The notes under the pieces were generated by a model, which was given only the letters and a program-made list of their open reading frames with translations, ran no database searches and was not told the origin of the DNA. The position numbers were made by a program, and so were the translations under genes. From TPA_inf: Saccharomyces (Eukaryota): 64,000 nucleotides of DNA. Below, one piece after another: positions 1,864 through 58,869 of this stretch. Where the stretch lies: NCBI GenBank assembly GCA_000146045.2, contig BK006948.2:352001-416000 (forward strand). Direction: 5' to 3'. Every line of letters begins with the position of its first letter. Position 1 is the stretch's first letter.

Positions 1864-2040
1864 TACCATTTTTAAATATATTTCTACTTTCTACTTAATA
1901 GCAATTTTAATTAATCTAATTATTTACAAGTCACCAATGACTGACTAAACAATTGAAAGAGTCCTTTGTACAACAAAAAAAAAGATACTTGTCGCTGACG
2001 CTCAAAAAATATTTATATAGCAAAAGTGCACGACAAAAAA

Positions 2041-2113
2041 TGCTTCCAATCGGATTTGAACCGATGATCTCCACATTACTAGTGTGGCGCCTTACCAACT
2101 TGGCCATAGAAGC
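2041..2113 (-). tRNA. tRNA-Thr (anticodon AGU), 73 nt, no intron, no encoded CCA.
   Basis: The reverse complement reads GCTTCTATGGCCAAGTTGGTAAGGCGCCACACTAGTAATGTGGAGATCATCGGTTCAAATCCGATTGGAAGCA. The acceptor stem is GCTTCTA/TGGAAGC. The anticodon stem is CCACA/TGTGG with loop CTAGTAA, giving anticodon AGT. The T-arm carries GGTTCAAATCC (B box). Confidence 0.85.
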
Positions 2114-2128
2114 AGTAAACCGTTATTT

Positions 2129-36684: not shown

Positions 36685-37036
36685 GGCAGGCCCAGTGGAC
36701 GAAAAGACATAACTGCAGAAGTACAGCTGCCTTTATTTCTTGTGGTCATTTATTGCTTTTATTTTCAAGTCAGATATACAAGAAAATCAAATCCCATCGT
36801 CAACGTCACGTATAAACGATTAATTTACAGTAATACCATACTCTACCAACATTATTTTAGTCCGACGTTCAGTCCTGTAGGTGTTCCAAATCCTTCTGGC
36901 ATTGACTTCTGTGCAGAAACCCTTCAAAATGAGTTCCACTTTACGTCAGATCGCATAACAACCGGTCATATATTTTTTTCTTTTGCTAAACCCCCTACTG
37001 CAAGCACTTTTAAGAAAAAGAACAATAAATGCGTCT

Positions 37037-37046
37037 TTATTGCTGT
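37037..37046. promoter_or_regulatory. Candidate Ace1/Cup2 copper-responsive site (TTATTGCTGT, fitting HTHNNGCTGD) 171 bp upstream of the CRS5 ATG. A TATATAA box lies about 80 bp upstream of the ATG.
   Basis: The consensus match was made by eye. Confidence 0.35.
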
Positions 37047-37212
37047 GTGGAAGTGATTTTTGTCTTTCGGACAAAAAAAGGATAGGGATGCGAGAGGGCT
37101 GTGAAGTAGTGATCAAGCGGGGCCTATATAAGAAGGGCGCACATCGTCCCCCCTAAGAATAGCGAAGCGATATTACACTGAACACTACAATGTCAAATAG
37201 TACTCAATAAAT

Positions 37213-37422
37213 ATGACTGTAAAAATATGTGACTGTTAAGGCGAATGTTGTAAGGACTCTTGTCATTGTGGGAGCACCTGCCTTCCAAGCTGTTCTGGCG
37301 GTGAAAAGTGCAAATGTGATCACAGCACCGGAAGCCCTCAATGTAAGAGTTGTGGTGAAAAATGCAAATGCGAAACCACGTGCACTTGTGAAAAGAGTAA
37401 ATGCAATTGTGAAAAATGTTAG
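37213..37422 (+). pseudogene. CRS5: CRS5 copper metallothionein reading frame interrupted by an in-frame TAA at codon 9 (37237-37239). The remaining 60 codons are intact.
   Basis: ATG ACT GTA AAA ATA TGT GAC TGT TAA, then GGC GAA TGT TGT AAG GAC TCT TGT CAT TGT GGG AGC ACC TGC ... AAA TGC AAT TGT GAA AAA TGT TAG. This translates MTVKICDC*GECCKDSCHCGSTCLPSCSGGEKCKCDHSTGSPQCKSCGEKCKCETTCTCEKSKCNCEKC. Apart from the stop it matches the 69-aa Cys-rich metallothionein as recalled, in which codon 9 is Glu (GAA). Confidence 0.8.
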
Positions 37423-37770
37423 GTGACCCCTACTCTTTACTTATCATAAATACATCATCATATTTTACCCTTAATTAACAACATTTATTTAACTGCATGA
37501 ACTAAATATAAGGTATAGTTTCTTTTTCCCGGAATCTTTTTTTTAGATCGTTATTATTTAGACGGCACTAAGAGAAATAAATTAAACTAAATTACGGTGC
37601 GGAGCTCAAGGCATCTGCGAGTGTTTACTAACACTAAAAGAGATGAATAAAATAGATTTCTCAATGCAAAATTAAAATTACAATGTTACGCATACACACA
37701 AGTACAGATTTGTATATAGTATTTCTTCTTCGTTTTATCTGTCGTGTTGAAACATTTTGTTGTTCAAGTA

Positions 37771-55921: not shown

Positions 55922-56424
55922 CTGGCATGCAGTCTAAATATTTGCAAAGTATGTCTGAAGGACTAATGATAGGTGGGTCAGGATATCAGCTTAATCCTCA
56001 CCCATGAAGAAGAAGATATGTCAAAAGCCATATTCAGTAATTGGTCTATTTGTCTCCGTTGTCCACGCTTTCATAGCCATAGAGGAAAAGGCGTAGAAAG
56101 TTCTATATAACAGAGTATTTAGTATTATATTCCCGAGGTTTTAGGAAAGAAAGAAGAAGAAAGAGAAGGAGGAAAATGGGAAGAAACTTAAGATTGAAAG
56201 TGTGAGAAAAATGAATGGCCCTCTCTTTATATAGTGTTCAAAAAATTGAACAGCGATTTATTGTCATCACAGACGTTGAGTCTCTCTCTTTTCCTATTAA
56301 AATTAATCTTAGCAAGTAAGGGCTTGGAGGGAAGATAGCGTTGAGCTGTGAAGTCGATCAAATAAACAGCTTGAGACTAGTTAAGTAGCCACCCCCAGCA
56401 AAACGATATTGCCAAATCAAAATC

Positions 56425-57660: not shown

Positions 57661-58869
57661 AGCTGATATCTACGTACATGTGTATACGTGCCAATATTTG
57701 GACGCATCTTATTTTACGCGCTTGTGAAGAACTCACTACCTTCTTGAAGGAAGTAAGAAAAAATTTTCAGAATTGTTGATAGTCGTATATCTTCCATTAT
57801 AACTATTGTTAGCTATTAATTCAGATAATGTAGATAAGATTGAAAACATAAATTCATCATAAAAAAGAATAGGTCTTTTACGGCACCCGTTCAGACACTT
57901 TGACACTTCAAAGTATATGCATCAGCACACTTCTGACCATTCTACGTATTGTAACAGCAACATGAGTTCTTTAAAACTCCAATTGACATTTTCGTAATGT
58001 GTTTTGCATATCATCTAAATTTCAATGACAGATTTAAAAAGTCAAGTAATTAAAAATTTTCATAAGCGTGCTTTTTTATAGTGCGAAGAACGGCAAAGGC
58101 AACCTTAAGAAAAAAAAATGATAGGTTACGTGCTATATCCGGAAAATAAAGAAAGATGAGTAAGAGTTAAAGAAAGAATTCAACCAACCTGATGGGTGTA
58201 TGAAAATCCCGATTTTATATCGACAGCGCTAGCATGCATGAACAGTGTTTTGACGGTCAAGAAAAAACATAACCTCTGCATAATGTACTTACTTATCAAA
58301 ACGTTGCAAATCTTGTATGTAAGAGGTGTTTGGGTGTTTTTTCCAAACGACCCGAAGGAGGGCAATTCAAAATAAAAAAAGCAAATTTTATCAGGAAGAG
58401 AAGATTTTAGTCAGAACGGGCCATGTTCAATGGCCAATTTCTTATGCTCTAGAGTAATAATTACTAAGGAGGAAAGTAAGACAAAAAACGGTCTATCGTT
58501 GTTTTAAGTTTACAGCATAGGCATAGTGATAGAGTGTGAGAGAGTCTCTAACTCGGCGTCAGTTTAGAGTCATTTTTTTCTTTTCTCCCCCCAAAGGTCA
58601 TAAGAAGATAAGGATCCAAATTTAGAAGACAAAAAAAGTTTTGTTAGAACGTTTATCCCATTAAAAATAAGGGAAAAGAGAAACAACGTTATTTAGTGAT
58701 TTTTTTAATTGAGAAGCATTTTCTCCAGTGATAATTTAATTGTTTTTTTATTCGGAAAAGAACAGAAAGCGCAAGAAGACAACTCCTTCACACTTAGGCT
58801 ATTAATTTTCCCGCCTCCCCATTAATTGATAAAGATAAAGGTTGTCTGAGCTTACACTTATTATAAACA

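Follow-up and report, generated by a model that had tools for sequence, protein, structure and literature searches.

The metallothionein gene CRS5 carries a premature in-frame stop, TAA at codon 9, in the 64,000-nucleotide stretch of Saccharomyces cerevisiae DNA analysed here (hereafter the window). Although the locus is that of CRS5, the allele found in the window is unable to encode the Crs5 protein. We are highly confident that it represents the crs5 null allele known from laboratory strains of the S288C lineage, in which a G-to-T change converted Glu-9 into a stop. This attribution draws on identical neighbouring proteins and on published statements. The CRS5 stop is already known, with citations going back to the chromosome XV paper of 1997, and adds nothing as a discovery. 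An earlier interpretation of the same DNA, made from the letters alone (the sequence-only reading), recognized the stop and missed that it has long been known from the reference strain itself, so that the refutation it proposed, a reference with G at 37237, could not apply.

The gene order in the window is STI1-CIN5-DFG16-CRS5-HMS1-EXO1-AKR2, as on S. cerevisiae chromosome XV, and the Pfam domains of the ORFs flanking CRS5 are those expected of STI1, CIN5, DFG16, HMS1, EXO1, and AKR2 (Table 1). By protein look-up, the products of EXO1, AKR2, and CIN5 are exact matches to NCBI/UniRef entries named S. cerevisiae S288C. CRS5 is located between DFG16 (PalH/RIM21) and HMS1 (HLH) and thus in the orthologous position, an arrangement that all fetched assemblies share with the window. 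On the S288C chromosome XV, YOR031W is placed near 389,213-389,422, which would agree with a window that begins at 352,001. The length of DFG16 varies between annotations, with 670 residues predicted by the gene caller on Logan contigs (positions 1-956 of contig L026) and 619 in NCBI annotations, which is an artefact of start-codon choice without biological meaning. The window also encodes tRNA-Thr(AGT), the H/ACA snoRNA snR9, and the C/D snoRNA snR62, all of them strong but ordinary matches that fit yeast chromosome XV.

Table 1. Features of the window discussed in the text. Positions are counted from the first nucleotide of the window.
Feature	Position	Strand	Size or sequence	Description
tRNA-Thr(AGT)	2040..2114	-		
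STI1			589 aa	TPR and STI1/HOP DP domains (Pfam); flanking ORF in the window
CIN5			295 aa	bZIP domain (Pfam); flanking ORF in the window
DFG16			Length not fixed; listed ORF 689 aa from TTG	PalH/RIM21 domain (Pfam)
Ace1/Cup2-like copper-response element	37034..37045	+	TCTTTATTGCTG	Position -179 relative to the ATG
TATA box	37125..37132	+	TATATAAG	Position -88 relative to the ATG; fits TATA(A/T)A(A/T)(A/G)
Translatable remainder of CRS5	37213..37236	+	8 codons, MTVKICDC	ATG at 37213-37215
GTG ORF in another frame	37229..37426	+	65 codons	Overlaps CRS5; very probably not a gene
Premature stop of CRS5	37237..37239	+	TAA	Codon 9; GAA (Glu) to TAA by G-to-T at 37237
Intact CRS5 codons (residues 10-69)	37240..37419	+	60 codons	No longer translated; identical to the commonest intact allele
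Natural stop of CRS5	37420..37422	+	TAG	
HMS1			434 aa	HLH domain (Pfam); flanking ORF in the window
EXO1			702 aa	XPG-N/I domains (Pfam); flanking ORF in the window
AKR2			749 aa	Ankyrin and DHHC domains (Pfam); flanking ORF in the window
snR9 (H/ACA)	55949..56134	-		
snR62 (C/D)	57765..57864	-		

The sequence-only reading had described a TAA at codon 9 with the rest of CRS5 intact, and this is what the DNA contains: eight codons, the TAA, 60 sense codons, and a TAG. The 60 codons located 3' of the TAA encode, in the same frame, GECCKDSCHCGSTCLPSCSGGEKCKCDHSTGSPQCKSCGEKCKCETTCTCEKSKCNCEKC (GECCKDSC...NCEKC). When the stop is replaced by Glu, a 69-aa protein is obtained that matches Pfam PF12809 (Metallothi_Euk2) over residues 1-69 of 69 with 89.6 bits (cut-off 27 bits). 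This conceptual translation has 19 cysteines in 69 residues, with Cys-X-Cys and Cys-Cys motifs, and 17 of the cysteines are encoded 3' of the stop. The ORF of this PF12809-type metallothionein is interrupted in the window by the codon-9 TAA. As had been stated from the letters alone for ATG, GTG, and TTG, a scan of the CRS5 frame to the natural stop revealed no in-frame ATG, GTG, TTG, or CTG after the TAA. Only four AAG and one ACG are present in this frame as near-cognate codons, and the out-of-frame ATGs downstream of the TAA open ORFs of at most 20 aa. The stop is embedded in the context TGT TAA GGC GAA, that is, UAA followed by G. In yeast, the motif promoting readthrough is CA(A/G)N(U/C/G)A directly after the stop, and UAA followed by a purine is among the most efficient terminators. 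Because no in-frame restart codon is available and the stop context is unlike the one that promotes readthrough, the octapeptide MTVKICDC is the only predicted product, and the allele is predicted to be a null allele.

CRS5 DNA from other strains was obtained with three Crs5 variant proteins, with the neighbours HMS1 and CIN5, by a degenerate-pattern scan of metagenomes, and with the 65-codon GTG ORF that overlaps the gene. Among the contigs listed, the comparison set comprises 22 CRS5 loci from 21 distinct sources besides the window. The three annotated Crs5 variants, which were identified by homology search, all start with MTVKICDCEGECC; this N-terminus, which the sequence-only reading had expected, is encoded by every intact allele. 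Codon 9 is GAA in 20 of the 21 other distinct S. cerevisiae sources (16 NCBI assemblies and four metagenome contigs), including a lineage that is only 97.1% identical to the window (~3% divergent), whereas it is TAA in the window and in contig L026. The T instead of G at 37237 is the sole difference in this codon. The alignment to other strain assemblies that had been suggested earlier thus confirms the proposed single-nucleotide difference between GAA and TAA, with G at 37237 in the 20 sources and T in L026. All strains returned by the HMS1- and CIN5-based look-ups carry GAA, and the metagenome scan yielded one contig, also with GAA. Over the 210-nt coding sequence, the window and the commonest intact allele are identical at 209 positions and differ at base 25 only.

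Since these 20 other sources, including the ~3% divergent lineage, have GAA, G is, as judged from the alignments, the ancestral base at 37237 and T the derived one. The surrounding haplotypes are informative about the age of the change. Along 4305 bp, the locus from assembly GCA_947370585.1 (L013) matches the window at every position apart from 37237. Two further loci (L017 and L018) differ from the window at 3 of 13,888 positions, 37237 among them. Because the 4305-bp haplotype of L013 differs from the window at 37237 alone, the codon-9 mutation is, by this comparison, very young. In the protein collection, the canonical intact 69-aa Crs5 was absent by exact look-up, although 69-residue genes are called at the CRS5 position on many NCBI assemblies; the missing entry seems to reflect incomplete database coverage of very short proteins.

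An in-frame stop in CRS5 of S288C that is not present in other strains was reported by OhEigeartaigh et al. (PMC3161974), who cite Dujon et al. 1997 on the sequence of chromosome XV. Fitzpatrick et al. 2011 (PMC3240633) described the CRS5 and FLO8 stops of S288C as inactivating, "well-documented", and recorded in the Saccharomyces Genome Database, and found both stops again in strains 74-D694 and G600. According to Drozdova et al. 2016 (PMC4859572), the FLO8 and CRS5 stops of S288C are missing from strains of the Peterhof collection. The published S288C allele (CRS5/YOR031W) and the window copy share the gene, its neighbours (DFG16 upstream and HMS1 downstream), the in-frame stop, and an otherwise intact 69-codon ORF. 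No difference between the two was detected, with the papers speaking of an "in-frame stop" without giving a codon number. The nonsense allele of FLO8 (YER109C), which is cited along with CRS5, is likewise an inactivating stop that results from one base and is confined to the S288C lineage, but it concerns a different gene, chromosome, and phenotype (filamentous growth for FLO8).

CRS5 could still be functional if the UAA were read through, either at a basal level or in a [PSI+]-dependent manner, so that part of the Crs5 made is full-length and carries Gln, Tyr, or Lys as residue 9. The UAA-G context of the stop does not fit the motif CA(A/G)N(U/C/G)A. Furthermore, the stop is absent in 20 of the 21 other sources and is therefore not a conserved recoding site. 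The 60 downstream codons are perfectly intact, which would favour readthrough, but this intactness is accounted for by the youth of the mutation. Although readthrough of inactivating stops is discussed in the [PSI+] literature, where CRS5 is named among those of S288C (PMC3240633), we consider functional readthrough at this codon very improbable, even if a low level of it may still yield a little full-length protein.

The origin of the T had been left open in the sequence-only reading between a strain polymorphism, a sequencing error, and an engineered change. The first of these is right, and the other two have lost their footing. A sequencing or assembly error in a strain that truly has GAA would fit a difference of a single base at a position where 20 other sources have G. 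However, contig L026 (72.9 kb), which was assembled independently from run SRR29240426 (Logan), shows 100% identity to the window along 3198 bp, including the TAA, and the T is therefore not a sequencing error. At least one independent contig with TAA was thus present among the matches listed, and another 21 contigs share these gene neighbours. Moreover, the stop is described for S288C in three papers and was recovered by resequencing of 74-D694 and G600, leaving an error with a negligible probability. The same applies to deliberate engineering, such as Sc2.0 chromosome synthesis or a gene knock-out made in the laboratory. Sc2.0 recoding does favour TAA as stop codon, but the 64-kb window contains no loxPsym site (up to three mismatches allowed) and the native CRS5 stop is still TAG, so the change is not an Sc2.0 edit. 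Recoded PCRTags and swaps of TAG to TAA in the neighbouring genes were likewise not found. In addition, the surrounding 4.3-13.9 kb are essentially identical to those of natural isolates, and the stop was already contained in the 1997 chromosome XV sequence, according to the passage of PMC3161974 that cites it. We therefore regard an engineered stop as hardly conceivable and retain the derived S288C-lineage allele as the explanation.

Variability of CRS5 is not restricted to codon 9. Two loci encode C33Y (L001 and L002, 1501-1710), and a third encodes both C44Y and C69S (L003, 1501-1710). T22A is found in L011 and L015 and K45R in L009, with CRS5 on the minus strand of the loci. In L004 (338-550), a 1-nt deletion in an A-run shifts the frame from codon 50 onwards; this locus is a short metagenome contig, and the deletion is possibly an assembly error. 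Seven replacement or disruptive changes contrast with five synonymous changes across the CRS5 alleles, which hints that constraint on CRS5 may be relaxed in S. cerevisiae, perhaps through the amplification of CUP1. The damaging-looking C33Y and C44Y, together with C69S and the 1-nt deletion, could be taken to suggest that CRS5 is an old, decaying pseudogene in the species, but the complete 69-aa protein, with none of its 19 cysteines missing, is encoded in the majority of sources, and the window copy is damaged at one site only, within a haplotype that is otherwise the same as those with an intact CRS5, making this reading extremely unlikely. Neither multiple lesions nor loss of the promoter was seen in the window copy of CRS5, and the earlier view of a fresh nonsense allele, as opposed to an old pseudogene, agrees with the L013 haplotype.

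The upstream region of CRS5 contains an Ace1-like site and a TATA box (Table 1) that the sequence-only reading considered intact, and the intact CRS5 genes of other S. cerevisiae strains have the same two elements. These genes differ from the window copy in having GAA instead of TAA at codon 9, whereas only eight residues can be made from the latter. The copper-response element is identical in 23 of 23 S. cerevisiae sequences and includes a match to the consensus HTHNNGCTGD at 37037-37046. This consensus has 36 matches in the window, with about 50 expected, and is not enriched, so that a match alone provides no evidence for an Ace1 site. On the basis of Culotta et al. 1994, we regard TCTTTATTGCTG as a putative Ace1/Cup2 site, which would mediate copper induction. 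The TATA box TATATAAG is found in the window, its close relatives, and most strains with an intact allele, and is replaced in divergent haplotypes by TATAAAAG, which also fits TATA(A/T)A(A/T)(A/G). A C-run in the promoter (37157-37162) has 6 nt in the window and 5 nt in the others. The polymorphisms in the TATA box and the C-run are both independent of the codon-9 stop.

These data suggest the following course of events. CRS5 (YOR031W) codes for a copper/zinc metallothionein of 69 residues, and a recent G-to-T transversion changed its ninth codon from GAA (Glu) to TAA, leaving the promoter, the remaining coding sequence, and the native stop untouched. CRS5 is presumably still transcribed. Ribosomes would terminate after eight residues, and no metal-binding protein would be made. 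The tandemly amplified CUP1 locus would then provide the only metallothionein of the strain, and a reduced copper buffering capacity with CUP1 as the sole metallothionein, as the sequence-only reading had also expected, is plausible. S288C-derived strains would already be crs5-null, which bears on experiments on copper, zinc, and cadmium buffering, on CRS5 deletion, and on CRS5 mRNA stability. This background is to be remembered when such strains are compared with wild or industrial strains that have an intact CRS5, even if its consequence is modest.

The stop may also affect the fate of the mRNA. The remaining 183 nt of the ORF would, together with the native trailer, become a long 3' untranslated region. 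In yeast, features of this type elicit nonsense-mediated decay, and the crs5 transcript should be susceptible to this pathway. A 2022 review (PMC9674712), the sole source for a link between CRS5 and nonsense-mediated decay in this analysis, lists CRS5 among the copper-homeostasis mRNAs that are raised in decay-pathway mutants of laboratory strains. It asks why CRS5, and not CUP1, is regulated by decay, and the premature stop is unmentioned. In Guan et al. 2006 and its supplements, there is no mention of CRS5. The status of CRS5 mRNA as a "natural" decay substrate could be a consequence of the codon-9 stop, and hence an artefact of the laboratory lineage instead of an evolved form of copper regulation, but we propose this only tentatively and consider it rather unlikely. 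The review classes CRS5 as an indirect target with an unchanged half-life, which is a poor fit to a premature stop that simply triggers decay.

Finally, the GTG ORF that overlaps CRS5 in another frame is almost certainly an annotation artefact of a sequence rich in Cys codons. It has no Pfam match, and automatic gene calling places it on numerous public contigs (395 index blocks), among them contigs on which CRS5 is intact. It served as a handle for contig retrieval and in this way led to loci L026-L028.
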